Shown in pieces: positions 1,635 to 30,484 of a DNA stretch of 64,000 nt. Every line of letters begins with the position of its first letter. The stretch's first letter is position 1. The position numbers were made by a program, and so were the translations under genes. Under the pieces are notes generated by a model. It saw only the letters and a program-made list of their open reading frames with translations. It was not told the DNA's origin and did not search any database. The stretch comes from a virus (lineage: Duplodnaviria > Heunggongvirae > Uroviricota > Caudoviricetes), in the IMG/VR virus record IMGVR_UViG_3300046642_001000, positions 103,935 through 167,934 of that record; one strand, given 5' to 3'.

Positions 1635-3074
1635 ATGGAGGAACTCGACCTGAGCTCTGTTCTCGACGCGGTTCACGGGAAGCCGGTCGTCCTGGTTCCT
1701 TTCAAGGATCAGGCCGGAGGGCGCGCCGTGGCCATGTTGGCCGGCACGGTGTTCGAGTTCGTGTTGGATCCGGCAGTCGGCTTCGTGAACGAGGTCGCCC
1801 GGGAAGCCAGCCACGTCGTCTGCTTCGAGCACCGGAACCTCGAGGACATCTGCACCTCGGGCAAGACGGTCTATGACGTGAAGATCCTCTATGGCGGGGA
1901 GCGGAAGCTCTTCGACCTGGCCCGTGACTACCTCGACCCGGACATGGCCCGGAACGTCCTGGACCGGGAACAGAACTACACCGCCCACGTCAAGGCCTGC
2001 AAGACGGCGGGGATCGACGTCACCCGTCACTCCCTTCTCAAGCTGATGCCCGCCAGGGCTGTCCAGTCACTCCTCAAGGTCCGGGCCATAGCAACTATGG
2101 CGTTGTTTGAGAAGGCCCTCCGGGGTGAGTCCTGCGACCTCGGAGAGTATGAGAGGGACACCTGGCCGTTCGCCCTGGCTCTCCGGCAGATCGAGGTCGT
2201 CGGCATCAAGGTCGACGTGGGCTACGCGAAGGAGAAGCTCCGGGAAGACCTCCCGAAGCACGAGCACAAGTTCATCTCTCAGATGGCGCAGTCGGACGGT
2301 TACGTCCGTACCCTCTTCAACCCGGCAGGCGGGAAGACCGGCCGCATCAAGGTCGAAGAGGGGTTCAACTGCATGGGCATCCCGCACGGCACGGTCCGCA
2401 AGGGGATCGTCAGCCGGCACGAGGGCGGGGAGATCGTGGCCTTCGACTACAACGCCATCGACTACCGGAGCATCGTGGCCTCGCTCGACGACAAGGACTT
2501 CCGGAAGATCTACGACGGGGTGGACGACTTCCACGTGAAGACCTGCGAGATGATCCTCTCGGGTCCGCCCGAGAAGCTCCGTCGAGACATCATCAAGTAC
2601 TTCTCCTACGTGTACATCTATGGAGGGTCGGACGAGACCCTCGCTTCGAAGACCAGACTGAGCATGATGAAGGTCCAGCAGGTGAAGCAGGTGATGGACC
2701 GGAAGCTCCGTCCCATCGCGGACTTCCGCCGGAAGCTGGCCGTGCAGGCCCGGGTGGACGGGTTCGTCATGCTGCCGAGCGGTCGGAAGATCCCGGTGGC
2801 CGGGGACGACCACGACGGCAAGATCATCGGGCTCTACGCCCAGGGGTTCAGCTCCTGGGTCTTCGAGCAGGCGTTGGTCCGGGTGGTGGCCTACCTCCGC
2901 GAGAAGCGGAGCAAGGTCATCTTCACGGTCCACGACGAGCTGGACATCGACATGCACCCCGAAGAGGGGAAGGAGATGCTGGTCGTGAAGTCTCTCATGG
3001 AGGCGCCAGTAGAAGGATTCACGTTCAGGGCGAACCTGAAGAGAGGCAGGACGTATGGCGACGCGACCGACTGA
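1635..3074 (+). CDS. family A (PolA-like) DNA polymerase, polymerase domain only
   Basis: motif A FDYNAIDYRSIVASL (like DYSQIELR), motif B RRDIIKYFSYVYIYGGS, motif C TVHDEL; no exonuclease domain; an alternative start is at 1620. Confidence 0.8.
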   Translation: MEELDLSSVLDAVHGKPVVLVPFKDQAGGRAVAMLAGTVFEFVLDPAVGFVNEVAREASHVVCFEHRNLEDICTSGKTVYDVKILYGGERKLFDLARDYLDPDMARNVLDREQNYTAHVKACKTAGIDVTRHSLLKLMPARAVQSLLKVRAIATMALFEKALRGESCDLGEYERDTWPFALALRQIEVVGIKVDVGYAKEKLREDLPKHEHKFISQMAQSDGYVRTLFNPAGGKTGRIKVEEGFNCMGIPHGTVRKGIVSRHEGGEIVAFDYNAIDYRSIVASLDDKDFRKIYDGVDDFHVKTCEMILSGPPEKLRRDIIKYFSYVYIYGGSDETLASKTRLSMMKVQQVKQVMDRKLRPIADFRRKLAVQARVDGFVMLPSGRKIPVAGDDHDGKIIGLYAQGFSSWVFEQALVRVVAYLREKRSKVIFTVHDELDIDMHPEEGKEMLVVKSLMEAPVEGFTFRANLKRGRTYGDATD

Positions 3075-3654
3075 AGAGGAACTCCTCAAGAACCACGAGC
3101 GGGTAGAGAAGCTGATCGAGCTGATGCCGGACGACCGGCGAGACCAGGTCCTGAAGATGATGGACGGGCCGGTCGGACTGACCTACTTCACGGCTCCGGC
3201 CTCCAGCCACGAGGAGTACCACTCCTGCTACCCGGGCGGTCTCGCCCAACACTCTCTCAACGTGGTCCGGAACCTGAAGAAGGTCGCGGACGCCCTCTGC
3301 AAGGGAAGATACCCCGACCACCAGCTCGCCTTCGTCGGTCTCTTCCACGACCTCGGGAAGGTCGGGGACGGGGAAAAGGAATCTTACCTCCCGAACCAGG
3401 ACGCGTGGCAGCGGAACCGGGGCCGTCTCTACGAGATCAACAAGGCCTGCCCGTGGATGCCCACCTCCGAACGTGGCCTGTACATCCTCCAGGACCACGA
3501 AATCAAGGTAACCAGTGACGAATATTTGGCAATCCGTCTGAACGATGGCCAGTACGTAGACGAGAACAAGCCCTACAGGGGGCGAGAACCGGAACTGGCG
3601 TTCCTGCTCCACACGGCGGACTACTGGTCGGCACGTCAGGAAAAGCTCGATTAG
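3055..3654 (+). CDS. HD-domain phosphohydrolase
   Basis: H..H ... LFHDLGK HD signature; its start overlaps the polymerase end. Confidence 0.6.
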   Translation: MATRPTEEELLKNHERVEKLIELMPDDRRDQVLKMMDGPVGLTYFTAPASSHEEYHSCYPGGLAQHSLNVVRNLKKVADALCKGRYPDHQLAFVGLFHDLGKVGDGEKESYLPNQDAWQRNRGRLYEINKACPWMPTSERGLYILQDHEIKVTSDEYLAIRLNDGQYVDENKPYRGREPELAFLLHTADYWSARQEKLD

Positions 3655-3717
3655 GGTCCAAAGACGGAGAGTCTCCTTACTTAATCTGTAGATCTACGCT
3701 CAGATGGAGACGATCCA

Positions 3718-4236
3718 ATGAAGATGAAGAAGGCGCAGCTGGAAAAGATCATCCGCGAGGAGCTCGCTCGCCACGTCGGTGGTCTGCTTCGGGAGAAGGA
3801 AGGGGAGCATCCCGACCTGGAAGACGCCGAAGGTGGCACCGAAGACGACATGTCCTCGGCCTCCGAGAAGCAGCCCGACAACACCGCGGGAAAGCCGCAT
3901 GGCAAGCAGGACGCGGCCCCGGCGGGTGATGACGAAGAGAAGCCCATCGGCGACGAGCCGGCCGACAACGACCTGGAGAAGCAGGCCGTCGGCGACGAGG
4001 GCGCCCCGGACGAGGAAGAGGACGACGAGGCCGGTCCGGAAGACACCGAGAAGGTGTCCGACGAGCTGGTCGGCAAGACCATCCAGTCCATCTCGGCCAA
4101 CCCGAAGTCGAAGATGATGCCCGGCGCCATGGAGATCGTCATCCAGTTCGACCAGATGCCGGACCCCCTGAAGATCCTGGTCACGAAGAGTGGCCAGGTG
4201 AAGTACTATTTCAAGGGTCTGCACAACGAGATCTAG
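3718..4236 (+). CDS. acidic hypothetical protein
   Basis: 172-aa ORF with a Glu/Asp-rich centre; a GGAGA Shine-Dalgarno lies 7 nt upstream; the upstream block ATGGAGACGATCCAATG resembles the cassette at 52582 and 57594. Confidence 0.5.
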   Translation: MKMKKAQLEKIIREELARHVGGLLREKEGEHPDLEDAEGGTEDDMSSASEKQPDNTAGKPHGKQDAAPAGDDEEKPIGDEPADNDLEKQAVGDEGAPDEEEDDEAGPEDTEKVSDELVGKTIQSISANPKSKMMPGAMEIVIQFDQMPDPLKILVTKSGQVKYYFKGLHNEI

Positions 4237-4239
4237 CCG

Positions 4240-4845
4240 ATGCCGTTCAAGAGCCAGGCGCAGCGGCGCTTCATGTACTCCCAGCATCCGAAGATCGCGA
4301 AGCGCTGGGAGAAGGAAACGCCGAAGGGGAAGCTCCCCGACAAGAAGGAGTCAGAGAACATGCCCGAGATGAAGAAGGTCTTCGAGAAGAAGGGTGAGAA
4401 GCACGACGGGCCGGGGACTCCCTCCAAGGTCGACTGCGTTCCGAGCCCCTGCTGGAACGACGAGTACCAGGACAACAACGTCCACGACGACATGACCGAG
4501 ACGGTCGACATGGCCCTCCTCAGGGACCCGGCCAAGTTCGTCCAGGGCGTCGAGAAGTTCATCGGTGACGTGAAGAAGGACGCCGGTCAGATCCAGCACT
4601 TCGCCAGCACCTACAAGCAGTCCACCAAGCTCGACGACACACAGAAGGCGGCGTTCGGCAAGATGGACTTTCCCCTCAAGATGCTCAACAAGTTCGCCGA
4701 CGAGCTCAGCCGGGCAGCCGGAGAGGCGTCGCAACAGTCCGGCACTCAGGGCAAGGGACCGGAGGCCAACAGGCCGACGGCCCAGATGCCGGCACAGAAG
4801 AAGCCCGGGTTCCTGAACCGGGTCTTCGGGAAGAAGGCATCATGA
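4240..4845 (+). CDS. hypothetical protein
   Basis: 201-aa ORF, tightly packed with its neighbours. Confidence 0.5.
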   Translation: MPFKSQAQRRFMYSQHPKIAKRWEKETPKGKLPDKKESENMPEMKKVFEKKGEKHDGPGTPSKVDCVPSPCWNDEYQDNNVHDDMTETVDMALLRDPAKFVQGVEKFIGDVKKDAGQIQHFASTYKQSTKLDDTQKAAFGKMDFPLKMLNKFADELSRAAGEASQQSGTQGKGPEANRPTAQMPAQKKPGFLNRVFGKKAS

Positions 4846-5207
4846 GCTACGATCCGTTCAAGGCATGGCAGGACTTCCAGCTCGGTCAAGAGGAGCGCCT
4901 CAACGGCAAGCTCCTGAAGGAAGACCTGGACGTCGAGAAGATGCACGACCCCGAGGACTACCTCAAGGAAGTCGGGGAGTTCATCACGGAGACCTCGGCA
5001 CACGTCAAGGCGCTCCAGGACTTCTCGCACCACCACGAGGTGCCCCGTACGAACCCCCGGTTCGGCACGGCTCTCGACAAGGTGGCAGCCGCCGTCGAGC
5101 AGCTCAAGAGCGAGCTGGCGAAGGTCAAGCTTCCGCCCGCACCGATGGAGAAGGAGTCCGCGCCGGCCGGTGGTGGCTACGGCGGCGGCGCTCTCTTCAA
5201 GAAGTAG
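4842..5207 (+). CDS. hypothetical protein
   Basis: 121-aa ORF with an ATGA overlap to the upstream gene. Confidence 0.5.
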   Translation: MSYDPFKAWQDFQLGQEERLNGKLLKEDLDVEKMHDPEDYLKEVGEFITETSAHVKALQDFSHHHEVPRTNPRFGTALDKVAAAVEQLKSELAKVKLPPAPMEKESAPAGGGYGGGALFKK

Positions 5208-5603
5208 ATGGAGCCCGGATCCATGAACGCATCAGACCACGCGTTGTTTACGTCCGCCATGGCCATCGCCCTGGTCCTCGTCAAGGTCCTCGAGAAGTGC
5301 TTCGACTGGGTGACCAAGAGGGTCAGCGGCGGCAAGGACGGCGCGACAAAGGTGGAGCTCGGTGACGAGCCGTCGCGCATGATCCGGGAGACCTACGAGC
5401 AGTCCAAGCACACGGACGAGATCGTCAGCATCCGGGACAACGACGGCATCCCCATGGTCTACACACCCCGCTCCTCCCTGGAGAACCAGCTGAAGATGGC
5501 CGAGGCTCTCCGTGACATGAGCAAGGACAACGTCTCCAGCTCCGAAGAGCTCTCCAGGAAGATCGACGAGGTCCTCGCCGAAATCAAGAAGACGCGGGTC
5601 TAA
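5208..5603 (+). CDS. hypothetical protein with an N-terminal hydrophobic segment
   Basis: 131-aa ORF; TSAMAIALVLVKVL is a likely membrane anchor. Confidence 0.45.
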   Translation: MEPGSMNASDHALFTSAMAIALVLVKVLEKCFDWVTKRVSGGKDGATKVELGDEPSRMIRETYEQSKHTDEIVSIRDNDGIPMVYTPRSSLENQLKMAEALRDMSKDNVSSSEELSRKIDEVLAEIKKTRV

Positions 5604-5615
5604 GGAGGGTCTTCC

Positions 5616-8600
5616 TTGTCCCGGCTCGACGACATCATCCGAGAGTCGCTCCGATCAATCTACGGGGCGTCTCAACCAAACTACTCAGGGCGTGCAGCCG
5701 GCGGGACCGGCGACAACCGGCATGGCGGTGGTGCGGGCAAGCCCGGGTACCCGGTGCCGGACGGTCTCGAGGACGACGAAGAGCAGCGGTTCCCCTTCAT
5801 GAAGGAAGGCGAGGCACCCTTGGCCAAGTCCCCCATCCCCGACGATGCCGGCGCCGCACAGGAGCCGACCGTCACCTACTCCGACCAGAGCGATCTCACC
5901 GAAGGCGGCAACGCCATGGGGACCGACCGTGTCCCCCGTGAGAACGTCGGACCGACGATCGAGGCCTACAAGAAGCAGGTCCTCTCCAAGGTCAAGCACA
6001 AGTCCGTGAAGCCCGTGGGTTCCACCGGCAAGAAGGCGTCCAGCGGGGACATCGACCTCGGCCTGGACACCGAACTGTCCCTCGAAGAGATCTCGGCCAT
6101 CCTGAAGAAGCTGGGGATCGAGCACAAGGTCGCCAAGGGACTGGGCGAGATCAACTCCAAGTTCCCGCAGTACACCCCTGATGGCAAGCCCACCAAGCTC
6201 TCCGCCCAGGTCGACCTGATGGTCGGTCCGGAGGCGTGGACCCAGTTCTCCTATTATGGACCTGGCGAGAGCGAGTCTAAGTACAAGGCGCTTCCCCGCA
6301 CAGGTCTCGTCCTCGGTCTCCTCCGGTACGCCACCGAGGAACCGCAGCCGGACGGCTCGGTCAAGTTCTGGTCCATCAGCCCGGCCAAGGGAGTCTTCCA
6401 GAAGGTCGGTCGGAAGGTCAAGAACAAGAAGGGCGAGGAAGAGTTCAAGTCGGACCGTGTGGACGCCACCAGCATCAGTGATCCCGAGGAAGTGGCCAAG
6501 CTCATCTCCAAGGGCACCGGCACGCCGTGGTCCGTGAAGGACCTGGCTGCGCCGTTCGAGCAGGTGTGGGCCAAGGCCAAGTCCACCATGGATCCGAAGA
6601 AGCTGGAGAAGGTCAAGGGCTACCTGAAGGGCTTCCTCAAGGGAGCCAAGCACGACGAGCCGTCGGAGCTCGGTGAAGCGAACGAGCCCGAGGGCGTCGT
6701 CTTCCGCGGTCTCCGTGGTCTCACTCCCCAGGAGCTCGCCAAGCTCGGCGGCAATCCGTCCCAGCCGAACGGCTCGGCGGTGATCAGCAAGGTCGACAAG
6801 AAGGGCTACTGGTCCGCCAATCCGAAGCTGGCCATGGTCTATGCCACCACCGCGGCCACTGCGGAACGGAAGGGCAACATCATGGCGATCCTCCGCGGGC
6901 GTTCGGACGCCGCGACCAAGGGTTCGGCCAAGGCGCTCAACCCCGGCACCCACGAGACCCGGATCGACAAGATCTGGTGGTCGACGGATCCGGGCCAGCT
7001 GAAGGCGGCCAAGCTCGACGAGGGCGGCGGCATCTCTCACCTCGAGGACATGAAGCCCCAGGAGTTCCTGCAGTTCCTGGCGAAGTACAAGGACCTGCCG
7101 CTCAAGGGCGGGCTCGAGGTCTCCGAGAAGGTGGACGGCTCCGCCCGCATGGAGTTCGGTGCCGAGAACGGAAAGCTCTGGACCAAGAGCAAGAACGGGA
7201 CTCCGAAGAAGTCTTCGAAGGAGTGGCCGGACAAGCCGATGTTCGCGGCTCTCAAGAACGCCCACAAGGCGCTCGAGTCCAAGCCGGTGGGACAGAACAT
7301 CCCGCCGAACACCGTCTTCACGGCCGAGGTCCTGTACACCAAGATCCCGAACTCCATCGAGTACGGTCCGAACGTCATCATGATCCACGGCGTCCACAAG
7401 GGCGACGCGGTCCTGTCCGACGAGGCCTCCAAGAAGGTGGCCAACGACCTCATCAAGAAGTCGGGCGGCCAGCTCACGGACGGCAAGGACCCGTGGAAGT
7501 TCGAGTACAAGCGGGTCATCAGCCCGGAAGACGTGATGGTGGACGTCAAGGAGGAGTTCACCTCCCTCGGACAGATCTACCAGGAGCTGAAGAAGCTCGA
7601 GCCGGACAAGCTGAAGGCGGCGGGCAAGGGCCCGTACAAGGCGGCCATGGAGCGCTTCTCGGCGATCCAGAAGGCGGTCAAGGAGAAGCTGGTCGGACAG
7701 CTCCGGAAGCAGAAGTCCTCCTACGGTCCCGAAGGCGGGGACGTGGAAGGCATCGTCTTCCGTGACCTGGAGAACGGCGCGCTCACCAAGCTCGTCGACA
7801 AGGACCTCTTCACGAAGCTCAACCAGTTCAACTGGAAGTACCGCGGTCTCATCGGCAAGGGGACCAAGGTCGACAACATCTGGCGGAACGGCGTCATCTC
7901 CGACTTCAGGAAGCGGGTGGCCACCGACGTCATCGGGAAGCCTGAGGCGGCCAGCACCGCCTTCGGCCGGCAGCTCTCTTCCCTGAACTCCGAGACAGAG
8001 TACCCGAAGGAAGCCGACACCCCCGAGAAGAAGAACGACTACCTGCTCGGACAGTGGGTGAAGAAGAACAAGGCCTTCGGCGGAAAGGACCCGGTCGCGA
8101 CCTTCAAGGCCGAGATCACCAAGGCTCAGAACGAGATGAAGCAGCTCGAGGCCGAGTGGGCCGCCGAGAAGAAGAAGGGGCCGACCGTCCAGCTCAAGGG
8201 GCAGACCCGGAAGATGGACCCGCTCGTGATGCAGCGGACGGACACGGACTTCCAGCAGGCCCACCAGTCGCTGGACGAGCTCCAGAAGGCCGCCGAGGCG
8301 ATCGGTGGGCTCAAGGGCGACCTGACCAAGAAGGTAGCCATCATGAAGCTCTTCCTCGGCCAGCACCGTCTGGAGAGGCTCCAGGGCGGCGGCGAGGAAG
8401 AGGCCGAGGAATCCGTCATGCGTGAAGCACCCGGAGTGGATTCGTACGGGGCCACCCAGCCGCAGACCGGCCAGAAGCCGACCTCGGGGTTCGACAAGAC
8501 CAGCGTCGCCCAGACCAAGACCAAGGGCGCGCCCAAGGCCACCACCGGCGTCACGACCGAGATGGCCCAGCAGATCCTCAAGAAGAACATCCCCCAGCTG

Positions 8601-12521: not shown

Positions 12522-12543
12522 CCAGCAGGGAGGGACTCATGGC

Positions 12544-13068: not shown

Positions 13069-13200
13069 GCTCCTTTTTAGGGTTGACAGCGTCCTGAGAC
13101 GCCTATGTATTAGGTGCACATTTAGAGACCGGTGCACACACGGCGCGCGAAAGGCGCCAACAACTTTAGAGTCTCACAACCGAAAGGAGCAACACCCGCC

Positions 13201-14103: not shown

Positions 14104-14199
14104 TCCGACTCCCTAGTTAGCTTGTCCGTCGCTACCGGGTTTGGTCCGGTACGGTCTGTCAACTGTCAGGCCGATGGACTCTTTTTCTAAAGGAGTCAC

Positions 14200-14736: not shown

Positions 14737-14739
14737 ACC

Positions 14740-16032
14740 ATGGCAAAGAAGGACAAGGACGAAGCCCCGTCGACCAAGGACGAGGCGGATTCCCTCAAGC
14801 TCAGCAAGCTCCTCGTCAAGCAGTTCAACGACGGGGAAGACAAGATCGCCTGGAACCTCGGGACCGATCATGACAACCCCACCGAGGTGAAGGAGTTCAT
14901 CTCCTTTGGTTCCACCCTCCTCAACTACATCTGCACCAACCGACGCAACGGGGGTGCACCCGTGGGCAAGATCACGGAGATCGTGGGTGAGGAAGCCTCG
15001 GGCAAGTCGCTCCTGGCGGCCCACCTGATCGCGGAATGCCAGAAGCGGGGCGGCATCGCGGTCTACATCGATACGGAGAACGCGGCCAGTCCGGAGTTCC
15101 TCGTGCAGCTCGGGGTGAACATCAACGAGCTCGTCTACCTCCAGCCCGGCTGCTGCGAGGCGGTGGGCGAGGCGATCGACAAGACCATCCTCACGGCTCG
15201 GGCCAAGGCGCCGAACAAGCTGGTCCTCATCGTCTGGGACTCCATCGCGAACTGCCCGACCAAGGCGGAGCTCGAGGGGAGCTACGACCTGAACATGAAC
15301 CTCCAGCTGGAGAAGTCCAAGGTCCTCAGCAAGATGATGAGGAAGCTGGTGGACACGCTCGGCAAGGAAAGGATCTGCGTCGTCTTCACGAACCAGCTGA
15401 AGACGAAGATCGGCGTCATGTACGGCGACCCGATGACGACCCCCGGAGGAAAGGCGGTCCCCTACGCGGCCAGCCTCCGCATCCGCCTCACTCGCTCCAC
15501 CCAGCTCGTCCAGGGCAAGCCGAAGAAGGGCGAGGAGAAGGAAGAGGGGACGGAGGGCGCGTCGGAGGGAGAAGGCAAGAAGGAGGCCAAGGGCGCGGTC
15601 TACGGCATCAACACAATCGCCAAGGTGATCAAGTGCCGCCTCGGTCCCCCGCTCCGCCAGTGCCGGTTCGACATCACGTTCTCCTCGGGCATCGACGACG
15701 AGGAGAGCTGGTTCACCCTGCTCCATGAGCGGGGCGAGATCGAAAAGCAGAAGGGGTGGTGCTACTACTCGAAGTACCCGTCGGGGAAGATGTCCCTCAA
15801 GGAAGACCCGACCAACCCGAAGAAGGAGGTCGAGTACGATCGCGGCCTCATGTTCCGGGAGAAGGAGTGGAAGAAGGCCCTCAAGGACTTCCCCGACTTC
15901 AAGACCCACGTCCAGAACGACCTCGAGAAGCACCTCATCGTGAAGTACGGCGAGACGCCGGCGGACTTCGGGGGAGACTCCGACAGCCTGCTGGACGTCG
16001 AGGCGGCGCTGGAAGTCGCCCAGGGTGGGTAA
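14740..16032 (+). CDS. recA: RecA/UvsX-like recombinase
   Basis: Walker A GEEASGKS, an IDTENA block, and NQLKTKIGVMYGDPMTTPGGKAVPYAASLRIRL aligning with the RecA core; plus a roughly 130-aa C-terminal extension. Confidence 0.9.
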   Translation: MAKKDKDEAPSTKDEADSLKLSKLLVKQFNDGEDKIAWNLGTDHDNPTEVKEFISFGSTLLNYICTNRRNGGAPVGKITEIVGEEASGKSLLAAHLIAECQKRGGIAVYIDTENAASPEFLVQLGVNINELVYLQPGCCEAVGEAIDKTILTARAKAPNKLVLIVWDSIANCPTKAELEGSYDLNMNLQLEKSKVLSKMMRKLVDTLGKERICVVFTNQLKTKIGVMYGDPMTTPGGKAVPYAASLRIRLTRSTQLVQGKPKKGEEKEEGTEGASEGEGKKEAKGAVYGINTIAKVIKCRLGPPLRQCRFDITFSSGIDDEESWFTLLHERGEIEKQKGWCYYSKYPSGKMSLKEDPTNPKKEVEYDRGLMFREKEWKKALKDFPDFKTHVQNDLEKHLIVKYGETPADFGGDSDSLLDVEAALEVAQGG

Positions 16033-17064: not shown

Positions 17065-17281
17065 CCGTTGGGGATCTGACCCAAAGGATTGGGTACGTAT
17101 CCCACAATGGCTGACGACCGGCTCCACTCCTGCGGCGGAACATTCTCCCAGAGGATCAAGTCTCCTCCTCCGCCCGACCCAGAGAACTGGAGCTGGGGCT
17201 GTACTCCGACAGGCACGTTCAAGTGTGACTGGTGTGGGGTCATGAAGAAGTTCCGCTTGCGGGACGGAGAGAAGAAGGACA

Positions 17282-19664: not shown

Positions 19665-19678
19665 GGAGATCCTCAGAC

Positions 19679-22452: not shown

Positions 22453-23398
22453 TATCCTCGGAGTCTCGTTCGACGACATCTTCGTCAAGCTCCTTCGGAA
22501 GCTGAGCCGGAACCCCGACTTCGTCTGCGCCCCGCGTGGACAGAAGATCAAGGAAGACCTGGCCCTCACGCTCGTCCTGACGGACCCGCGGTCCCGCTTC
22601 ATCCACAACCCGGCCCGGAAGTCGAACTACGGGTTCGCGGCCGGGGAGTTCCTCTGGTACTGGCAGGGTCGCCGGGATCTGGAGATGATGCTCTACTACA
22701 ACCGGCGGATGAAGGACTTCTCGGACGACGGCCACACGCTGAACTCGGCGTACGGCTACCGGCTCCGGGCGGGGTCCGACCTGCTGGACATGGACAGCCA
22801 GTGGAACAACTGCATCGCCACCCTGTCGGGGGACTCGGACAGTCGACGGGCGGTCATGACCATCTTCGCCCCGATCGACGCGGACGTGGCGGTGCACCAG
22901 GGATCGAAGGACGTGCCCTGCACCCTCTCGCTCCAGTTCTTCATCCGTGACGGCGCGCTCCACCTGCACGTCCACATGCGGTCCAACGACGCCATCTGGG
23001 GCCTGACGAATGACCTCTTCAGCTTCACGCTCTTCCAGGAGTGCATGTTCCTGGACCTGAAGCGGCAGAACCCGAAGTTCGCGGACCTGCGCCTCGGCCA
23101 GTACTACCACACGGCCGGCTCGCTCCACCTGTACGAGCGCCACTTCGAGATGGCCGAAGAGGTCATCAAGCTCTACGACGAGGGCTTCAGGTGCTACGAC
23201 GCCATGCCGGCCCTCACCAGCCTCGAGTCTCTGGACAAGCTGGGCTACGACGAGGAAGAGCTTCGCAAGCGTTACATCGACCAGATCCAGCTCTCCAAGT
23301 ACGAGGGCGGGGAGCTGTGGCTGGCCGACGAGTTGAATGTACACCGGCAAAAGAGGGACGCCGAAGAGTCCCTCAAGGGAGACAAGAAAGCAGGCTGA
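22445..23398 (+). CDS. thymidylate synthase (ThyA)-family protein, candidate pyrimidine hydroxymethylase
   Basis: VPCTLSLQFFIRDGALHLHVHMRSNDAIWGLTNDLFSFTLFQ aligns with the ThyA PCH..FQFYV...RS.D...G.PFNI core, but carries Thr where ThyA has His; RRAVMTIF matches the ThyA RR motif. Confidence 0.7.
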   Translation: MADILGVSFDDIFVKLLRKLSRNPDFVCAPRGQKIKEDLALTLVLTDPRSRFIHNPARKSNYGFAAGEFLWYWQGRRDLEMMLYYNRRMKDFSDDGHTLNSAYGYRLRAGSDLLDMDSQWNNCIATLSGDSDSRRAVMTIFAPIDADVAVHQGSKDVPCTLSLQFFIRDGALHLHVHMRSNDAIWGLTNDLFSFTLFQECMFLDLKRQNPKFADLRLGQYYHTAGSLHLYERHFEMAEEVIKLYDEGFRCYDAMPALTSLESLDKLGYDEEELRKRYIDQIQLSKYEGGELWLADELNVHRQKRDAEESLKGDKKAG

Positions 23399-23400
23399 AC

Positions 23401-23929: not shown

Positions 23930-24307
23930 ATGAGCGCACTTCCCCCCGACATGTTGTACGACGTCTTCAAGCGTCAAGAGGAGTTCATGGAACTCCTGCG
24001 CGTGAACGACAAGCTTCCCGAGTGGCCGGTGGACCTCACCACCAAGCCCGGCCAACGCCTCATCAAGGAGACGGCCTTCAACCTCTCCGACGAACTCCAC
24101 GAGGCGATGGCCACCCTCAAGAACAAGATGCACCGGCTGACCGACGATCGCACCCTCGACTTCGGTCACTACAAGGAAGAGCTCGGGGACGCCTTCGCGT
24201 TCTTCCTCGAGATCTGTCTCCTCAGCGGGATCGGGGCGGACGACCTCTACGAGGAGTACTGCCGCAAGAACAAGACCGTCAAGGAAAGACTGGCCAAGGG
24301 CTACTGA
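23930..24307 (+). CDS. MazG-like nucleoside triphosphate pyrophosphohydrolase
   Basis: EELGDAFAFFLEICLL EExGD motif in an all-alpha context. Confidence 0.6.
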   Translation: MSALPPDMLYDVFKRQEEFMELLRVNDKLPEWPVDLTTKPGQRLIKETAFNLSDELHEAMATLKNKMHRLTDDRTLDFGHYKEELGDAFAFFLEICLLSGIGADDLYEEYCRKNKTVKERLAKGY

Positions 24308-24525: not shown

Positions 24526-24784
24526 AGGGTACGAGTGCCACCTGACGTTCGACGCTGAACAGGCGAAGCTCGCCGAGGCGTCGTGTCCCTACGGCTGGAA
24601 GTTCAGCCGGATCGAGGGCGATCCCGTCCTCGGCCAACGACTCTACTGCTACTGGACGGCGTGGCACGGGTCGCAGGGAGTGATCGAAGACGAGATGCGC
24701 GGCGCCATCAGACTGGCCAATCGCAACGGTCTCCCCCTGGTCAGGGCGAAGATCGAACACATCATCTACGACCAGAGGTACTAA
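24518..24784 (+). CDS. hypothetical protein
   Basis: 88-aa ORF. Confidence 0.4.
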   Translation: MDRGYECHLTFDAEQAKLAEASCPYGWKFSRIEGDPVLGQRLYCYWTAWHGSQGVIEDEMRGAIRLANRNGLPLVRAKIEHIIYDQRY

Positions 24785-25338
24785 TGAGCGTAGTCATCAA
24801 TCTCTACGGTGGACCGGGCACCGGCAAGTCCACCTCGGCGGCCTACCTCTTCTACCTGCTGAAGTCGCAGGGGAAGAACGCCGAGCTCGTGCGGGAGTAC
24901 GTCAAGGACTGGGCGTGGGAGGGTCGCACGATCTCCACCTACGACCAGATCTACCTGCTCGGCAAGCAGGTCCGTCGGGAGAGCTTCCTCTACGGGAAGG
25001 TGGACATGATCGTCACCGACGCCCCGATCATGCTGGGCATCTACTACGCCAGCAAGTTCTCTCCCCTCTCGGTCAGTGAGGGAGTCCGGGCCATGACCCT
25101 CGCCTACTACCGGCAGGCGGCCGAGGACGGCCACCAGCACCACCACGTCTTCCTGGAGCGCACCAAGCCGTACAAGCAGGAGGGTCGGTTCCAGAACGAG
25201 GAGCAGGCCAAGCAGATCGACAACGGCGTCTATGGGATGCTGTCCGACCTGCGGATCCCGCTTGTCCGATGCGGGACGCAAAGAGAAGATCTAGACGAGC
25301 TACTTACCACTCTGAAGGTAAACAACCCCAAGGCTTAG
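24784..25338 (+). CDS. P-loop nucleotide or nucleoside kinase-like protein
   Basis: Walker A YGGPGTGKST near the N-terminus; 184 aa. Confidence 0.6.
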   Translation: MSVVINLYGGPGTGKSTSAAYLFYLLKSQGKNAELVREYVKDWAWEGRTISTYDQIYLLGKQVRRESFLYGKVDMIVTDAPIMLGIYYASKFSPLSVSEGVRAMTLAYYRQAAEDGHQHHHVFLERTKPYKQEGRFQNEEQAKQIDNGVYGMLSDLRIPLVRCGTQREDLDELLTTLKVNNPKA

Positions 25339-25354: not shown

Positions 25355-26419
25355 ATGAAGCGCACGACAAAGCTCAGGATCTTCTACAAGTCCAAGTCCT
25401 CAGGACAGGGTCACAATCCCTACCACACGGGCGGACTGGCGGCGAACGCGCTGCACACCGTCGGCGTCCTCCGTCGGGAGGGTGTAGACGTAGACCTCGT
25501 CGCCGTGTCCAGCTTCGACGAGCTGGCGGCCTACCTTCGGGCCAACCCGGACATCACCCACGCCGTCATCGAGGCGGTCTGGGTCAAGGCGTCCGAGGTC
25601 GTCCTCCTGTCCCACGCCCACCCCCACCTCAAGATCGTGGTGCGGGCGCACTCCAAGATCGGGTTCCTCCAGGTCGAGCCCGAGGCCATCCCGGTCATCC
25701 GGGCCCTCATCGACCTCGGGGAAGAGTACCCGAACATCTCTTTCTCCAGCAACAACCAGGAGTTCTGCAACTCTCTCGGGGAAGTCTACGGCGACGTGCT
25801 CTACCTGCCGAACCTCTTCGACTGGGACGGGTCTCCCCCGAAGAAGCACAGCCACGATCGCATCCTCAGGCTGGCTTCTTTCGGTGCCACCCGGCTCCTG
25901 AAGCTCCACTCTTCCGCGGCACTGGCGGCCCTTCAGGTCGCCGTCCGCCTCGACCGGCAGCTGGAGTTCTACGTCAATACCGACAATACCCCGGGAGGTC
26001 ACAGCGTCCGGAACACGATGCGGAACCTCTTCGCTGGTCTCCCCTGGGCGAAGCTGATCGAGGTGAGCTGGCAGGACGCGGCCACCTTCCGGGAGACCAT
26101 CGCTGAGATGGACCTGGTCTTCCAGCTGTCCGCCACCGAGACCTTCTGCCTGGTGGCCGCGGACGCCGTGTCCAGCGGGGTGCCAGTGATCGTCGGAGAG
26201 GCCGTCAGCTGGGTGCCGGAAAGGTACCAGTCCAACATCGACGACACCTCGGAGGCGGCAACCGAGGCCATCCGCGCACTGGAGAGCAGCCACAAGACGG
26301 TCAAGGTGCAGCAGGAAGCCCTGAACGACTTCGTGGAGTCTTCGACTCGGATCTGGCGCACGTTCCTCGGGATGCCGAGCGGACGGGAAAGCCGTAAGAA
26401 CCTCTGGTGGATTTTCTAA
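25355..26419 (+). CDS. GT-B fold glycosyltransferase (GT1/GT4-like)
   Basis: C-terminal SATETFCLVAADAVSSGVPVIVGE resembles the GT4 E..G..EAMA.G.PVI donor-binding block. Confidence 0.55.
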   Translation: MKRTTKLRIFYKSKSSGQGHNPYHTGGLAANALHTVGVLRREGVDVDLVAVSSFDELAAYLRANPDITHAVIEAVWVKASEVVLLSHAHPHLKIVVRAHSKIGFLQVEPEAIPVIRALIDLGEEYPNISFSSNNQEFCNSLGEVYGDVLYLPNLFDWDGSPPKKHSHDRILRLASFGATRLLKLHSSAALAALQVAVRLDRQLEFYVNTDNTPGGHSVRNTMRNLFAGLPWAKLIEVSWQDAATFRETIAEMDLVFQLSATETFCLVAADAVSSGVPVIVGEAVSWVPERYQSNIDDTSEAATEAIRALESSHKTVKVQQEALNDFVESSTRIWRTFLGMPSGRESRKNLWWIF

Positions 26420-26432
26420 AAAGGAGCAGCAC

Positions 26433-26738
26433 ATGGGATTCAATCTCGAACTGAACGGCAACCGCGTCGCCATCGACCTCGACGAGGTGGGTGACCAGAC
26501 GGAGAGCGGCCTCTACGTCCCGCAGACCGTCTCTCAGGAGGGCCCGAAGAAGGGCAAGGTGGTCGCGGTCAGCGAGACCTACCTCGTGAACGGGGCGACG
26601 GTGACCAGCAAGTTCAAGCCCGGAGACGCGGTCCTCATCGACGCCCTCGGCGGCATGAAGGCGACCATCAACCGTCGTGAGTACCTCGTCGTGCGGAACG
26701 AGGACATCCTCGGCCGCTACCTGCCGGAGGAAGCGTGA
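26433..26738 (+). CDS. groES: GroES-like co-chaperonin
   Basis: about 100 aa; the GKVVAVSE ... GDAVLIDALGG ... EYLVVRNEDILG pattern matches Cpn10. Confidence 0.65.
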   Translation: MGFNLELNGNRVAIDLDEVGDQTESGLYVPQTVSQEGPKKGKVVAVSETYLVNGATVTSKFKPGDAVLIDALGGMKATINRREYLVVRNEDILGRYLPEEA

Positions 26739-26935: not shown

Positions 26936-26939
26936 CAGC

Positions 26940-26950: not shown

Positions 26951-26956
26951 ACTCCT

Positions 26957-29900
26957 ATGCTCAAGGAGTTCGCCTCCTTTCACAACCATTCTCACTTCTC
27001 GGTCTTCGACGGCCTCTCCCTCCCGGAAGAGCTGCTGAAGGCCGCGAAGGAGAAGGGTCTCAAGTCCATCGCCCTCACCGATCACGGTGTGACACACGGT
27101 CACGCCGACTGGTACCTGATGGGGAAGAAGATGGGCGTGAAGACCGTCTTCGGCGTGGAAGCCTACGTCATCCACGACCTCAAGGAGTGGAAGGCGCTGA
27201 AGGGGGAGATCGACTCCCAGAAGCGGAAGGGCGCCAAGAAGGAAGACAACGAGTACACCGCCGACGGTGACGTCGTCGATCCCAAGGCCCTTCGACGCAA
27301 GGGCCACCTCGTCATCCTCGCCAGCAACCGGGAGGGTCTCAGCAACCTCTACCAGCTCACGTTCAAGGCCCACAAGTTTGGCTTCTACCAGAAGCCACGC
27401 ATGGATAAGGTGATGCTCCAGGAGCACGCCAAGGGCCTGATCGCGACCTCGGCCTGCATGGGCGGCGTCATCTCCAAGCGGCTGTGGGACCTGAAGGAAG
27501 GGTCCTGCACCTGGGAGGACGTCAAGAACGAGGTCCTCGACTACGACCGGATCTTCGGCCGTGGCCGGTTCTACCTCGAGCTCCAGTTCAACGAGATGGA
27601 CAAGGAGCAGAACTACATCAACACCTCCCTCGTCCAGCTCCACAAGGAGACGGGCGTCCCGCTGACGGTGACCACGGACTCACACTACGCCACCCAGGCG
27701 GAGTGGGAGCCACGAGAGCTTCTCCACCTCATGGGCTGGAGCAAGAAGACGGTCGCCGACCTGCCGGAACAGAAGCTCGACTCACAGGTCAAGCAGCTCT
27801 TTGTGAAGTCTCCCGAGGAGATGTGGCTCACCTACGAGAAGCTGGCCGGTCACTGCATCGATCCGAAGACCGCGATGGAGGCGTTCCAGGGGACGCTCCT
27901 CATCGACAGCCTCATCGAGGACTTCGAGCCCGACACTCACCAGCGCCTGCCCACCCTCCCCTTCGCCAATCCCTACAAGGAGATGGGCATGCGGGCCATC
28001 GCCGGCCTGAAGAAGCTGGGACTGGCGGAGAACGAGATCTACAAGGACCGCCTCCTCTTCGAGCTCGGGGTCATCAAGCAGAAGGGGATCTCGAACTACT
28101 TCCTCGTCTGCCAGCAGATCATCGAGGAAGCCAAGAAGTACATGCTTGTCGGTCCAGGCCGCGGCTCAGCCGCCGGCTCCCTCGTGTGCTGGTGCCTGGG
28201 CATCACGGACCTCGACCCGATCAAGAGAGACCTGCTCTTCGAACGCTTCCTCGACATCGACCGCGCCGAGCTCCCCGACATCGACACGGACTTCGAGGAT
28301 CCCAAGGCCGCCAAGCGGATGCTTCAGAAGATGTTCGGGGACGACAACGTCGCCTCCCTCAGCTCGTACGGCACGTTCCAGATCAAGGGACTGCTGAAGG
28401 ACCTGGGGCGTGTGTACGGCGTCGACCACAACCTCATCAACAAGCTCAACCGGCAGATCGACAAGGAGCTCAAGGTCCTCTACGTGGACCAGGACAAGAG
28501 CACCCTCGTGGTCAAGCTGGACGACATCATCCGGGTCAGCCCGTCGTTCAACACCTTCGTGGAAGAGAACCCCGACCTGGGCAGCAAGATCAAGACTCTC
28601 TACGGCCGGATCAGGCACGTCACCCGGCACGCGGCTGGTGTCATCATCGGCGACAACCTGCCGGCGGAGACCAGCTGCTTCGTCGCCAAGGCCAAGGGCA
28701 AGAAGACCAAGGACAACGAAGACGGGGAGGACGACACACTGGCCGAAGAAGGCGAGATGGTCGTCCAGTGCTCGTTCACCGAGGGCATCGTCAACAAGAA
28801 CCTCTCGGCCATGGGCTTCGTCAAGATGGACATCCTCGGGCTGGCCAACCTGCGCGTCATCCGGTGCGCCCTGGAACACATCAGCTCACGGACCGGCAAG
28901 AGCTTCGACGAACTCTACGAGGGACTGCGTTCGCACAACATGGACCTCGATGACATCAAGGTCATGAAGAACATCTTCTGGGACGGGAACTTCGGAGCCA
29001 TCTTCCAGTTCTCGAACCCGGGCATCCGGGCGCTGGCCAAGCGGGTCAAGCCGGACAGCTTCGTCGACGTCTCGGCCATCTGCTCTCTCTACCGCCCCGG
29101 CCCGCTCAAGGGTGGGTATGACAAGGTCTACGTCACGGCGAAGCACGGGGAGATCGCCTCCCTCGGTCACCCGGTGCTGGACGAGATCCTCGGTTCGACC
29201 AAGGGCTGCCTCGTCTTCCAGGAGCAGCTCATGAAGGTCTGCTCCGTCTTCGGCAAGATGACGGGCAAGGAAGTCAACCGCGTCCGCAAGGTCCTGCTGA
29301 AGAAGGACAAGAGCAAGACGGAAGAGTTCTTGAAGCAGGAGAACGACGTCCTCTACGCCAGCTTCCACAAGGGCTGCATGGAGCACGGCTTCCCCGAAGA
29401 CAAGACCCTGAAGCTCTGGGAAGACATCAAGGCCTTCGGCGGCTACGCCTTCAACAAGAGCCACTCGGATGCCTACTCCCTCACCACGATGCAGACGGCG
29501 CACCTGGCGACCTACTACCCGCTGGAGTTCTACACGGCGGCCCTGACGAAGGCGCAGGCCAACGCGATCCAGACTCTGGTGGCAGACATCCAGAAGACGG
29601 GGATCAAGATCCTCCCGGTGGACATCAACAAGAGCCGGGCGGCCAACATCATCGAGGGCCTGTGCATCCGGCTGGCCCTCGGACGTGTCCTCGGCGTGGG
29701 TCCGTCCGTGATCGAAAAGATCGTGGCCAACCAACCATACACCTCGTTCCAGGACTTCCTCGACAGGTCCAAGGCCAACAAGACGGCGGTCGAGGCGCTC
29801 ATCCAGGTGGGAGCCTTCGGGTCTCTCCCCGGCTGCGGCAACATCAAGCGGCTCTGGGAGGCATACCGGAAGTGGACCGACAACGTCCTCGTCACCCTCG

Positions 29901-30484
29901 ACGGGGAGCTGAAGATCGTCGACGAGAAGGTGTCAGGCGGTCCGAAGCTGGCCCGAGTCCAGTCGGTCAAGGGCCGTCCACGCTGGGACGAGCTCTACTC
30001 CCGGATCATGACGGATGAGAAGATCGAAGACTTCAAGCTCCACGAGAAGGTCTTCCTCGAGAACGAGCTCATGGAGTTCAGCCTCGCGGGTACTCCCTTC
30101 GAGATCCTCGACCGGAAGAAGAAGATCACCGCCATGTTCGATGGGGTGGTCTCCACGATGGAGGAGTTCCTCGGCGGCGAGGAAGAGATGACGATGCTCC
30201 CGGTCGTGGTGAAGGAGTGGAAGGAGAAGCCCCAGCGCAACGGGCAGATGTTCGCCTTCATCAAGTTCGCCACGGAAGACGGGGAGACGTTCGACGTCCC
30301 GGCCTTCGCGAACATGTGGAAGTGGATCTCACCCGTCATCCGCAAAGGCTCGGTCTACATCGCCACCTTCAACAGAGACATCGACGATGACCCCGAGCGC
30401 CTGAAGCTCGGCCGGCCGGGGTGGGCGCAGAGCCAGCATTCGACGATGCAGGCCTTCATCAATGTGGACGACATAAGTCTCTAG
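26957..30484 (+). CDS. dnaE: DNA polymerase III alpha subunit (DnaE-type)
   Basis: N-terminal PHP domain HNHSHFSVFDG ... ALTDHG; 1175 aa. Confidence 0.85.
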   Translation: MLKEFASFHNHSHFSVFDGLSLPEELLKAAKEKGLKSIALTDHGVTHGHADWYLMGKKMGVKTVFGVEAYVIHDLKEWKALKGEIDSQKRKGAKKEDNEYTADGDVVDPKALRRKGHLVILASNREGLSNLYQLTFKAHKFGFYQKPRMDKVMLQEHAKGLIATSACMGGVISKRLWDLKEGSCTWEDVKNEVLDYDRIFGRGRFYLELQFNEMDKEQNYINTSLVQLHKETGVPLTVTTDSHYATQAEWEPRELLHLMGWSKKTVADLPEQKLDSQVKQLFVKSPEEMWLTYEKLAGHCIDPKTAMEAFQGTLLIDSLIEDFEPDTHQRLPTLPFANPYKEMGMRAIAGLKKLGLAENEIYKDRLLFELGVIKQKGISNYFLVCQQIIEEAKKYMLVGPGRGSAAGSLVCWCLGITDLDPIKRDLLFERFLDIDRAELPDIDTDFEDPKAAKRMLQKMFGDDNVASLSSYGTFQIKGLLKDLGRVYGVDHNLINKLNRQIDKELKVLYVDQDKSTLVVKLDDIIRVSPSFNTFVEENPDLGSKIKTLYGRIRHVTRHAAGVIIGDNLPAETSCFVAKAKGKKTKDNEDGEDDTLAEEGEMVVQCSFTEGIVNKNLSAMGFVKMDILGLANLRVIRCALEHISSRTGKSFDELYEGLRSHNMDLDDIKVMKNIFWDGNFGAIFQFSNPGIRALAKRVKPDSFVDVSAICSLYRPGPLKGGYDKVYVTAKHGEIASLGHPVLDEILGSTKGCLVFQEQLMKVCSVFGKMTGKEVNRVRKVLLKKDKSKTEEFLKQENDVLYASFHKGCMEHGFPEDKTLKLWEDIKAFGGYAFNKSHSDAYSLTTMQTAHLATYYPLEFYTAALTKAQANAIQTLVADIQKTGIKILPVDINKSRAANIIEGLCIRLALGRVLGVGPSVIEKIVANQPYTSFQDFLDRSKANKTAVEALIQVGAFGSLPGCGNIKRLWEAYRKWTDNVLVTLDGELKIVDEKVSGGPKLARVQSVKGRPRWDELYSRIMTDEKIEDFKLHEKVFLENELMEFSLAGTPFEILDRKKKITAMFDGVVSTMEEFLGGEEEMTMLPVVVKEWKEKPQRNGQMFAFIKFATEDGETFDVPAFANMWKWISPVIRKGSVYIATFNRDIDDDPERLKLGRPGWAQSQHSTMQAFINVDDISL

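Follow-up and report, generated by a model that had tools for sequence, protein, structure and literature searches.

Phages are usually described with one replicative DNA polymerase. The locus analyzed here encodes two polymerases, a compact family A enzyme (PolA) and a DnaE-type polymerase III alpha subunit (DnaE), and raises the question of which of them replicates the phage genome and what the other one is for. The analyzed stretch of 64,000 nucleotides (hereafter, the window) is phage DNA: relatives of its phage are present in IMG/VR, and a T4-type baseplate gene lies less than 10 kb upstream of the window. The phage genome is at least 205 kb in size, the longest contig with these identical proteins having 204,762 bp. 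The initial annotation considered the possession of both polymerases uncommon, which is plausible; we found no description of a PolA and DnaE pairing in the literature, and none of 76 unrelated DnaE-bearing viral contigs carries a PolA within 10 kb of DnaE.

Pfam matches placed PolA, a separate 5'-3' exonuclease (FEN), and the PHP-domain DnaE exactly where they had been annotated, all on the plus strand (Table 1). In each of the three intervals, a coding GC3 of about 0.9 is reached by the PolA, FEN or DnaE reading frame alone, and an independent gene caller made the same choice of the PolA start at position 1635 on 18 public contigs. DnaE belongs to a FEN-DnaB-RNR...DnaE block, and PolA lies approximately 24 kb off, at the edge of the structural genes.

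Table 1. Replication-related genes and predicted functional sites in the window
Feature	Coordinates	Strand	Basis
Compact family A DNA polymerase (PolA), 479 aa	1635..3074	+	PF00476, PDB phmmer alignments to Pol I enzymes, AlphaFold2/Foldseek
Predicted vestigial DnaQ-like exonuclease fold, PolA N-terminus, residues 1 to ~130	1635..2024	+	AlphaFold2 model and 23-sequence alignment
PolA motif A, VAFDYNAIDYRSI: catalytic D271; D276 at the steric-gate Glu position (Klenow E710)	2436..2474	+	Alignment to Pol I
PolA motif B (O-helix), RRDIIKYFSYVYIYGGS: R317, K321, Y325 (Klenow F762 position), Y329	2577..2633	+	
PolA motif C, FTVHDE: H433, D434, E435	2916..2954	+	Aligned to VHDEL of Taq
HD-type metal-dependent phosphohydrolase, 199 aa	3055..3654	+	phrog_5889 9e-21; phrog_28876 'metal-dependent phosphohydrolase'
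RecA/UvsX-like recombinase	14740..16032	+	PF00154 6e-50; phrog_97 UvsX-like 7e-71
Stand-alone 5'-3' exonuclease / flap endonuclease (FEN), 330 aa	17282..18274	+	PF02739 99.8 bits
DnaB-type replicative helicase, 465 aa	18267..19664	+	PF03796; phrog_19 2e-75
DnaE1-like C-family DNA polymerase III alpha (DnaE), 1175 aa	26957..30484	+	Four Pfam domains, TIGR00594, phrog_405 1e-241
DnaE PHP metal ligands H11, H13, D18, H43, E68, H117, C167, D241, H243	26978..27694	+	
DnaE catalytic aspartates D441, D443 (PDIDTDF), D625 (KMDILGL)	28265..28843	+	Invariant in 16 sequences

Neither polymerase is degraded, a doubt that had accompanied the initial annotation: the frames are open, no catalytic residue is missing and none varies among the relatives, and purifying selection is evident (PolA dN/dS of 0.13 against its closest relative, L007). 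An identical PolA was found on 18-21 and an identical DnaE on 12 independent contigs from several samples. At least nine divergent relatives from metagenomes carry both genes on one contig, and 16 IMG/VR contigs conserve the gene order PolA-HD...RecA-FEN-DnaB-RNR...DnaE. These data practically eliminate the proposal that one of the genes is a decaying pseudogene or that the pairing is an assembly chimera, in favor of which nothing was found. Given the dN/dS ratio, the shared contigs and the conserved synteny, both polymerases appear to be real and required.

By its profile matches, DnaE is assigned to the DnaE1-like and not to the error-prone DnaE2 type. Its PHP (PF02811), DNA_pol3_alpha (PF07733), DNA_pol3_finger (PF17657) and HHH_6 (PF14579) domains all score above the Pfam cut-offs, and the architecture comprises PHP, palm/thumb, fingers, HhH and a C-terminal OB-like region, the latter being conserved in the clade without a Pfam OB match. 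The protein exceeds the cut-off of TIGR00594 (631.8 bits against 434.35) and aligns to the Thermus aquaticus Pol III alpha structure 2hpi (1.6e-110). With the DnaE1 equivalog model NF004226 it scores 630.7 bits, under the cut-off of 1002, and matches the profile only up to position 1055 of 1146, and thus lacks the tau-binding end. The error-prone DnaE2/ImuC assignment (NF004225) was rejected at 338 bits versus a cut-off of 939, far under the DnaE1-type models. The catalytic aspartate motifs align to PDIDTDF and KMDFLGL of the T. aquaticus alpha subunit (E. coli D401, D403 and D555).

The PHP domain of DnaE has kept all nine metal ligands. Seven of them (D18, H43, E68, H117, C167, D241 and H243) are invariant in a 16-sequence clade alignment, and H11 and H13 occur in every clade sequence that has a complete N-terminus. 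Proofreading by the PHP domain is known in DnaE1 of Mycobacterium tuberculosis and in Thermus, and at the sequence level the phage enzyme shares their complete nine-residue metal-binding set. Searches of the window with Pfam and PHROGs found no separate DnaQ/epsilon-like exonuclease gene. Thus, intrinsic proofreading is the economical reading of the retained ligands, and the PHP domain of DnaE probably provides the 3'-5' exonuclease activity.

A different origin and role for DnaE, namely a recent capture from a host for the purposes of host takeover or repair and not of phage replication, is very improbable in view of its relationships. Among 185,579 GTDB species genomes, the best-matching DnaE reaches only 33% identity, and among the INPHARED phages only about 30%, versus 45-78% identity and conserved synteny within the phage clade. 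Any such capture must therefore lie far back, and DnaE is by now one of the core phage genes, within the replication module.

The second polymerase is predicted to have a thumb/palm/fingers fold of the Pol I type. PolA matches PF00476 with 78.8 bits (cut-off 34.3) over residues 213-458 of 479; the thumb, palm and fingers are present, and the 5' nuclease domain is absent. Its AlphaFold2 model (pLDDT 92) superposes over the full length on Pol I large fragments with TM scores of 0.70-0.75 in Foldseek; the match to 6vdd has an E-value of 8e-20 and a TM score of 0.72, and Klenow, Bst and Taq match similarly. As an equivalog of bacterial DNA polymerase I, PolA was rejected (NF004397, 70.3 bits versus a cut-off of 720; TIGR00593, 46.2 versus 600): in these comparisons it matches the polymerase domain alone and does not have the three-domain architecture.

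The statement of the initial annotation that PolA lacks exonuclease domains holds for the 5'-3' nuclease and has to be amended for the 3'-5' one. Residues 1 to approximately 130 are modelled with the beta1-beta2-beta3-alphaA-beta4 order of a DnaQ-like fold. In the 23-sequence family alignment, D81 is the sole invariant residue in this region, D25 is variable, and neither the Exo I Glu nor a conserved DEDD set is found; Pfam likewise gives no match to the DEDD 3'-5' exonuclease family PF01612. Judging from model and alignment, the exonuclease domain is vestigial and catalytically dead, rather than absent. In contrast to the DEDD residues, polymerase motifs A, B and C are kept, and thus PolA is predicted to be a non-proofreading enzyme, like the large fragments of Taq and Bst Pol I. 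Motif A aligns to DYSQIE(M/L)R of M. smegmatis Pol1 and Taq, with D271 and D276 invariant; D271, R317, K321, Y329, H433 and D434 are invariant in the 23 PolA sequences, and E435 is at least 90% conserved.

The 5' nuclease activity is encoded separately, as the initial annotation proposed, and FEN looks active by its sequence. It exceeds the PF02739 cut-off of 34.3, and its C-terminal H3TH domain (PF01367) scores 34.3 bits, just under the cut-off of 40. All acidic clusters of the Taq 5' nuclease (IIDG, WDGK, EADD, TDRD and GDKSDN) are kept, the aligned residues being D9, D58, E122, D124, D125, D146, D148, D193 and D196. FEN also matches the structures of T5 exonuclease and Xni; compared with the flap nucleases that phages (T5 D15 exonuclease, T4 RNase H) and bacteria (Xni/ExoIX) encode as stand-alone proteins, it is closer to the 5' nuclease domain of Pol I (NF004397 positions 2-251, 1.5e-38). 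This closeness is consistent with a Pol I whose parts were separated or had never been joined, the two now being encoded approximately 14 kb apart.

Comparison of the replication module across the relatives revealed unequal conservation of its genes: identity is 33-40% for PolA, the lowest in the module, 39-46% for FEN, 47-59% for RecA, 59-66% for DnaB, mostly 58-67% for RNR (27% in one relative) and 53-70% for DnaE. On matched contigs or loci, DnaE and PolA are 68 versus 45%, 66 versus 36%, 55 versus 40%, 57 versus 35%, 53 versus 39%, and 49 versus 33% identical, respectively. PolA is thus the fastest-evolving gene of the module. Lower conservation by itself is no proof of an auxiliary role, and PolA is no dispensable accessory, being found in every relative checked.

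The explanation that we favor, with moderate confidence, is that DnaE is a self-proofreading replicase and that PolA and FEN constitute a Pol I in two pieces, serving lagging-strand maturation as well as repair. According to this scheme, (i) DnaE would replicate the phage DNA together with the phage DnaB helicase, with proofreading by its own PHP domain; (ii) FEN would strip RNA primers and flaps; and (iii) the compact, exonuclease-dead PolA would fill the resulting gaps. PolA and FEN would thereby accomplish Okazaki-fragment maturation and probably also act in repair and recombination-associated synthesis beside the RecA/UvsX-like recombinase. Of the initial description of the locus as having two replicative polymerases, the part that stands is that both enzymes are intact and kept together across the lineage; the evidence favors one replicase, DnaE, and one auxiliary enzyme. 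The label "replicative" is not supported for PolA, since it is small, evolves fastest in the module and is predicted to lack proofreading.

Other components of a replisome were sought with Pfam and PHROGs in the window and with precomputed Pfam matches in 10 kb on each side of it, that is, in approximately 84 kb of the genome of at least 205 kb. Neither a sliding clamp or clamp loader nor a primase or ligase turned up in these 84 kb, and the clade alignment of DnaE shows no conserved clamp motif of the QxxLF type in the stretch from HhH to the OB-like region; both observations were counted against DnaE as the replicase. Two further observations, the presence of PolA in every relative checked and the Tyr at the Klenow F762 position, were counted against an auxiliary role of PolA.

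The universal retention of both genes in the lineage would also fit a fork served by two polymerases, for example one per strand or with PolA extending primers and then handing off to DnaE, in the manner of PolC and DnaE in Firmicutes, or even PolA as the main replicase. Fast phage replicases such as that of T7 typically have a Tyr at the F762 position, and in this respect PolA resembles phage replicative enzymes of its family. Arrangements with two polymerases have been proposed for other jumbo phages (PMC7824862). SPP1 replicates with the PolC and DnaE of its host and requires the two enzymes for synthesis of the leading and lagging strands (PMC5737612). We nevertheless consider such a fork quite unlikely here. 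PolA has no functional proofreading domain by its predicted residues and no separate DnaQ-like exonuclease in the window to assist it, no thioredoxin-binding or UDG-like processivity insertion is visible in its compact AlphaFold2 model, and it evolves much faster than DnaE. In addition, DnaE1-type enzymes themselves extend RNA primers.

The active site of PolA has two family-wide substitutions. Glu710 is regarded as Pol I's canonical steric gate (PMC13369328); the corresponding position is Asp in 60/60 members of the PolA family, whereas it is Glu in 41/41 outgroup Pol I sequences. The Klenow F762 position is Tyr in 59 of 61 family members. The family shares the motif A signature D(Y/F)NAIDYR; it has very few members and sharp boundaries. 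The modified-nucleotide context suggested by the initial annotation is real as well: the window encodes a CMP/dCMP 5-hydroxymethylase-like enzyme (MilA 1e-41, T4 gp42 7e-15), two or three glycosyltransferase-like genes, P-loop kinases and MazG-like enzymes. Finally, the HD phosphohydrolase gene shares 20 nt with the end of PolA, stop included, and lies directly downstream of PolA in 12 IMG/VR relatives, with 46-63% identity.

These features would fit a PolA specialized for the modified DNA of the phage or for unusual substrates, with an altered active site that relaxes sugar or base selectivity. It would carry out gap filling, bypass of lesions or modifications, or recombination-dependent synthesis on templates of the hydroxymethyl-cytosine type, possibly glycosylated, and the neighboring HD phosphohydrolase would shape its supply of nucleotides. 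The Asp at the gate retains the carboxylate, however, and both polymerases would have to copy the same modified template, so modification alone calls for no second enzyme. We rate such specialization as unlikely; it overlaps the split Pol I explanation. As an aminoadenine-incorporating DpoZ (NF038380), PolA was rejected, with a partial match of 31.5 bits against a cut-off of 500. A bolder proposal combines the specialization with a role at the fork: PolA not as a plain gap filler but as a dedicated second replisome polymerase, without proofreading, its pocket tuned to modified nucleotides or to ribo-containing primers, and acting with the co-translated HD phosphohydrolase. We regard this as likewise unlikely; if true, it would represent an obligatory two-polymerase replication system, new to phages.

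Thus, a deep uncultivated jumbo-phage lineage keeps a full DnaE1-like enzyme, a minimal and apparently exonuclease-dead PolA and a separate FEN together. If the division of labor that we infer is true, the lineage possesses a phage version of the bacterial Pol III/Pol I partnership and provides a compact system to study PHP proofreading and Okazaki-fragment maturation. The natural Glu-to-Asp change at the steric gate and the Phe-to-Tyr change in the pocket make PolA a candidate for the incorporation of modified or sugar-altered nucleotides, and its family offers a handle on how phages with hmC-type DNA organize their synthesis.

Comparison with bacterial replication systems revealed the same three activities and folds as in Pol III alpha (DnaE1) and Pol I, along with homologs of DnaB and RecA. 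The differences are that (i) the phage version of Pol I is distributed over two genes, (ii) its 3'-5' exonuclease is reduced to an apparently dead fold of approximately 130 aa, and (iii) no beta clamp, tau/gamma complex or epsilon subunit was seen in the 84 kb. The large fragments of Taq and Bst Pol I are among the best full-length structural matches of PolA (TM scores of approximately 0.64-0.73), and their exonuclease fold is likewise without catalytic residues. Compared with them, PolA is approximately 100 residues shorter, 15-18% identical and unfused from the 5' nuclease, and has Asp instead of Glu at the steric gate and Tyr instead of Phe in the O-helix.

Among the cultured phages, DnaE has no relative at the sequence level (at most 30% identity). 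In the record of Rhodothermus phage RM378, short genes are annotated as "DNA polymerase" and one of 318 aa as "similar to DNA polymerase I"; FEN matches the latter weakly; this phage is not a relative, as weak tblastn matches were obtained for FEN, DnaB and one small ORF only and none for DnaE. The jumbo phages of group 3.2 (phage G of Bacillus and phage c-st of Clostridium) have a PHP-Pol III alpha as their defining feature (Iyer et al. 2021, PMC7824862). The present clade resembles them in genome size (at least 205 kb here) and in having, as the presumed main polymerase, a Pol III alpha of full length with a PHP domain at its N-terminus. It differs from them in its T4-type baseplate and UvsX-like genes and in a conserved lineage-specific PolA, of which the passages of PMC7824862 consulted make no mention for group 3.2. 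Jumbo phages with a different pair of polymerases are already known: according to that paper, group 2.2 phages combine a main family B polymerase with an extra, minimal split Pol III alpha, and the authors propose strand-specific or repair roles. This group is a precedent for two unrelated polymerases in one jumbo phage; in the lineage described here, the main polymerase would be a full Pol III alpha and the extra one a family A enzyme.

The window (62% G+C, with third-position G+C of ~0.9) carries ~96 genes, nearly all on the plus strand. The compact family A polymerase (PolA), the stand-alone flap nuclease (FEN) and the C-family polymerase of the Pol III alpha type (DnaE) were all found exactly where the initial annotation had placed them (Table). 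Identical PolA and DnaE proteins are present on many independent metagenome contigs, on which the 479-aa PolA gene is called identically. The longest of these contigs has 204,762 bp and a T4-type baseplate gene lies within 10 kb upstream of PolA; thus, the source is a phage whose genome spans at least 205 kb. The same upstream flank contains large ORFs without Pfam matches, which are probably structural, and the flank downstream of the window contains small ORFs with no assigned function. Neither polymerase gene gave a megablast match in INPHARED, and tblastn against 50,697 phage records reached at best ~30% identity with DnaE and still lower values with PolA, so these collections hold no cultured relative. 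A promoter and terminator scan of positions 1-20000 yielded matches at chance level only; an AT-rich stretch precedes the PolA start, but the search revealed no repeated motif.

Table. Replication, modification and neighboring features in the window, with the identity of relatives to the window protein by local tblastn
Feature	Position	Size, match or remark	Identity
PolA	1635-3074 (+)	479 aa; PF00476 match	33-40%
PolA signature sites	2436-2474 and 2577-2633	Asp at steric gate; Tyr at F762 position
HD phosphohydrolase	3055-3654		46-63%
Giant ORF	5616-12521	2301 aa
Cys-rich ORF	13201-14103	300 aa
RecA/UvsX-like recombinase			47-59%
FEN	17282-18274 (+)	330 aa; 5'-3' exonuclease N-terminal domain match; C-terminal domain 34.3 bits, below the cut-off of 40	39-46%
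DnaB helicase			59-66%
RNR			mostly 58-67%, 27% in one relative
DHH/DHHA1 phosphoesterase	21517-22452	RecJ- or NrnA-like
GroES-like Cpn10	26433-26738
DnaE	26957-30484 (+)	1175 aa; PHP, DNA_pol3_alpha, finger domain and HHH_6 matches	53-70%
DnaE C-terminal motif	30380-30484	(F/M)I(N/D)VD(D/E)(I/L)x(L/V)
SPFH/Band-7 protein	31122-32951	609 aa
RadA/Sms-like ATPase	52576-53571	TIGR00416, 1.5e-31
Glycosyltransferase-like genes	25355-26419, 33188-34321	Pfam support
Possible third glycosyltransferase	35547-36758	recognized by eye only
Other modification-pathway genes	22445-23398, 23930-24307, 24784-25338, 30794-31096, 34323-34841, 37281-37700, 43162-44028, 46152-46751

DnaE aligns to the Pol III alpha of T. 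aquaticus (1.6e-110), and its catalytic aspartates (D441, D443 and D625), as well as all nine metal ligands of the PHP domain (H11, H13, D18, H43, E68, H117, C167, D241 and H243), are present and conserved in an alignment of 16 clade members. By profile score the protein is of the DnaE1 type rather than DnaE2 or PolC, with 632 bits for TIGR00594, above the cut-off, and 338 bits for the DnaE2 model. The profile match passes the HhH region into the OB-like C-terminal region and ends at position 1055 of 1146; thus, the tau-binding end is absent. In the clade alignment, the stretch from the HhH to the OB-like region is devoid of any conserved clamp motif of the QxxLF type. Members of the clade share 45-78% identity, whereas the best DnaE from a GTDB genome reaches 33%, which marks an old phage lineage of DnaE and contradicts recent capture of the gene from a host, a very improbable reading.

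The extreme C-terminus of the clade carries a conserved motif that could be a partner-binding peptide. In some relatives the gene is interrupted: in IMG/VR contig 3300027811_000003 the DnaE match stretches over 5 kb (fetched locus L034, 10001-14994), and three homologs of ~1400 aa (P0152, P0169 and P0171) contain the intein-splicing domain PF14890. The window copy has no interruption. It is preceded at ~220 nt by a GroES-like co-chaperonin gene, with one 66-aa ORF in between, and an SPFH/Band-7 protein is encoded just downstream.

In PolA, motif A (FDYNAIDYR, with D271), motif B (R317, K321, Y325 and Y329) and motif C (H433-D434-E435) align in register with solved Pol I structures. Residues D271, R317, K321, Y329, H433 and D434 are invariant among 23 sequences with identity down to 30%, and Y325 and E435 are kept in at least 90% of them. 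An AlphaFold2 model built from this alignment (pLDDT 92) can be superposed along the entire chain on large fragments of Pol I with TM 0.70-0.75 at just 15-18% identity; the nearest viral models are generic PolA enzymes. Assignment as DpoZ was ruled out by comparison of family models. The dN/dS ratio is 0.13 relative to the PolA of a metagenomic locus (L007) that is 89% identical. The reading that one of the polymerase genes is a pseudogene, or that their pairing is an assembly chimera, is contradicted by the data and has a negligible probability.

Residues 1 to ~130 of PolA form a small DnaQ-like fold, in which D81 is the sole invariant residue. The acidic residues of Exo I, II and III are not conserved, which makes the 3'-5' exonuclease vestigial; a 5' nuclease domain is absent from the protein. 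The initial statement that PolA lacks exonuclease domains is thus correct for the 5' nuclease and needs amendment for the 3'-5' exonuclease, whose vestigial fold is still there. The missing proofreading also speaks against PolA acting as the replicase, or as the second polymerase of a two-polymerase fork, and we consider both arrangements quite unlikely.

The PolA family has sharp limits: 56 proteins exceed 400 bits with its profile, the next match is a 564-aa PolA-type protein at 92 bits, followed by bacterial Pol I, and no members were found in 185,579 GTDB genomes. The canonical steric gate of Pol I is Glu710 (PMC13369328). At this position (Klenow E710), Asp occurs in all 60 family members and Glu in all 41 outgroup Pol I proteins; in 59 of 61 members, Tyr is found where Klenow has F762. 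The signature of the family reads D(Y/F)NAIDYR, compared with DYSQIELR and Phe in the bacterial outgroups. The family is amenable to bench tests.

This unusual Asp/Tyr pocket favors the main alternative for PolA, its specialization for modified phage DNA, and so do two features of the genomic context: (i) the predicted translational coupling of PolA to the HD phosphohydrolase gene and (ii) a set of nucleotide-modification genes. The HD gene, which encodes a metal-dependent enzyme better conserved than PolA, overlaps the PolA stop codon by 20 nt and adjoins PolA on the downstream side in all 12 IMG/VR relatives. The modification set includes a cytosine-nucleotide (CMP/dCMP) 5-hydroxymethylase-like enzyme (PDB MilA, 1e-41; T4 gp42, 7e-15; ThyA, weaker), the glycosyltransferase-like genes, two P-loop kinases, two MazG-like pyrophosphohydrolases, dCMP deaminase, ThyX and an NT5C 5'-nucleotidase. 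These genes are mostly syntenic in relatives; they likely constitute a cytosine-modification pathway and suggest that the phage DNA is of the hmC type, possibly glycosylated. Even so, we regard a specialized PolA as a rather unlikely explanation.

The two polymerases co-occur in relatives. PolA-family and DnaE-clade protein clusters have longest contigs of equal size in seven cases (204,762, 202,787, 198,604, 152,619, 103,960, 86,475 and 73,011 bp), the pairing being read from these sizes. Both genes were seen directly on IMG/VR contig 3300027811_000003 (113,289 bp), with matches ~25 kb apart. On a 196,492-bp JGI contig, PolA was detected by a DNA-level scan, and DnaE (cluster P0132) was paired by equal contig size. 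The protein search had missed this PolA, and the impression from its tables that many relatives of ~200 kb lack PolA was dropped. An HMM search with 10-kb flanks found no PolA in 80 DnaE loci and no DnaE in 21 PolA loci; this is expected and says little, since the genes are ~24 kb apart.

When every window protein was compared with the fetched loci by local tblastn, a conserved gene order emerged, shared by 12 loci of PolA and 4 of DnaE: g1-PolA-HD-g4...giant ORF-g9-g10-g11-RecA-g14-FEN-DnaB-RNR-DHH-hydroxymethylase...DnaE-glycosyltransferase-kinase-glycosyltransferase-dCMP deaminase. PolA is the least conserved member of this module. The giant ORF, located between PolA and the recombination genes, has a cytidylyltransferase-like domain (residues 1522-1679) as well as weak kinase-like matches; it is matched only in part by relatives and not at all by locus L014. 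The Cys-rich ORF of the module is conserved and has an acidic C-terminal tail; by eye it resembles a gp32-type SSB, but searches of Pfam, PHROG, NCBIfam and PDB sequences gave no support, and no weight is placed on this assignment. The RadA/Sms-like ATPase and the DHH/DHHA1 phosphoesterase may be additional factors of recombination or repair.

We lean, by a modest balance, toward the most economical reading, a division of labor of the bacterial style. The intact PHP domain, high conservation and location inside the helicase-RNR block argue for DnaE as the replicase, and the small, fast-evolving PolA without proofreading would be auxiliary. FEN carries every acidic cluster of the Taq 5' nuclease, and the family model that it matches best is that of bacterial Pol I, over the N-terminal 250 positions, which argues for PolA and FEN as a split Pol I. 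The DnaE1-like enzyme would copy the genome together with the phage DnaB, proofreading by its own PHP domain, whereas the polymerase core and FEN would mature Okazaki fragments and also serve repair and recombination-linked synthesis. Of the original proposal of two replicative polymerases, the functionality of both genes, as judged from sequence, and the modified-DNA context are retained; calling both replicative was an overstatement. Pfam and PHROGs searches of every window protein, with precomputed Pfam matches for 10 kb on each side, identified no beta or gp45-type clamp, clamp loader, DnaQ, primase or ligase in ~84 kb of the genome of at least 205 kb.

No description of a PolA and DnaE pairing in phages was found, and the conserved set of DnaE, exonuclease-dead PolA and FEN, like this PolA family, is undescribed in the literature searched, the coverage of which is incomplete. 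RM378 was rejected as a relative, since tblastn of all 96 window proteins against its whole genome gave three weak matches, none to DnaE. Bixzunavirus was rejected as a precedent: in Mycobacterium phage Colt, the 50 kb around DnaE contain no annotated Pol I or clamp. Iyer et al. (PMC7824862) define group 3.2 of the jumbo phages by a PHP-Pol III alpha and report for group 2.2 that a family B polymerase occurs alongside a minimal split Pol III, suggesting strand-specific or repair roles; thus, two polymerases in a jumbo phage are not a new idea. The replication module described here is solid, well conserved and slightly unusual, but does not amount to a new type of system. According to surveys of viral replicases, C-family polymerases are rare among phages and in most cases are conserved no further than the fingers; the exception is phage 0305phi8-36, which also encodes a beta clamp (PMC3201878). 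In contrast to the usual phage C-family enzymes, the window DnaE belongs to the rarer full-length kind.
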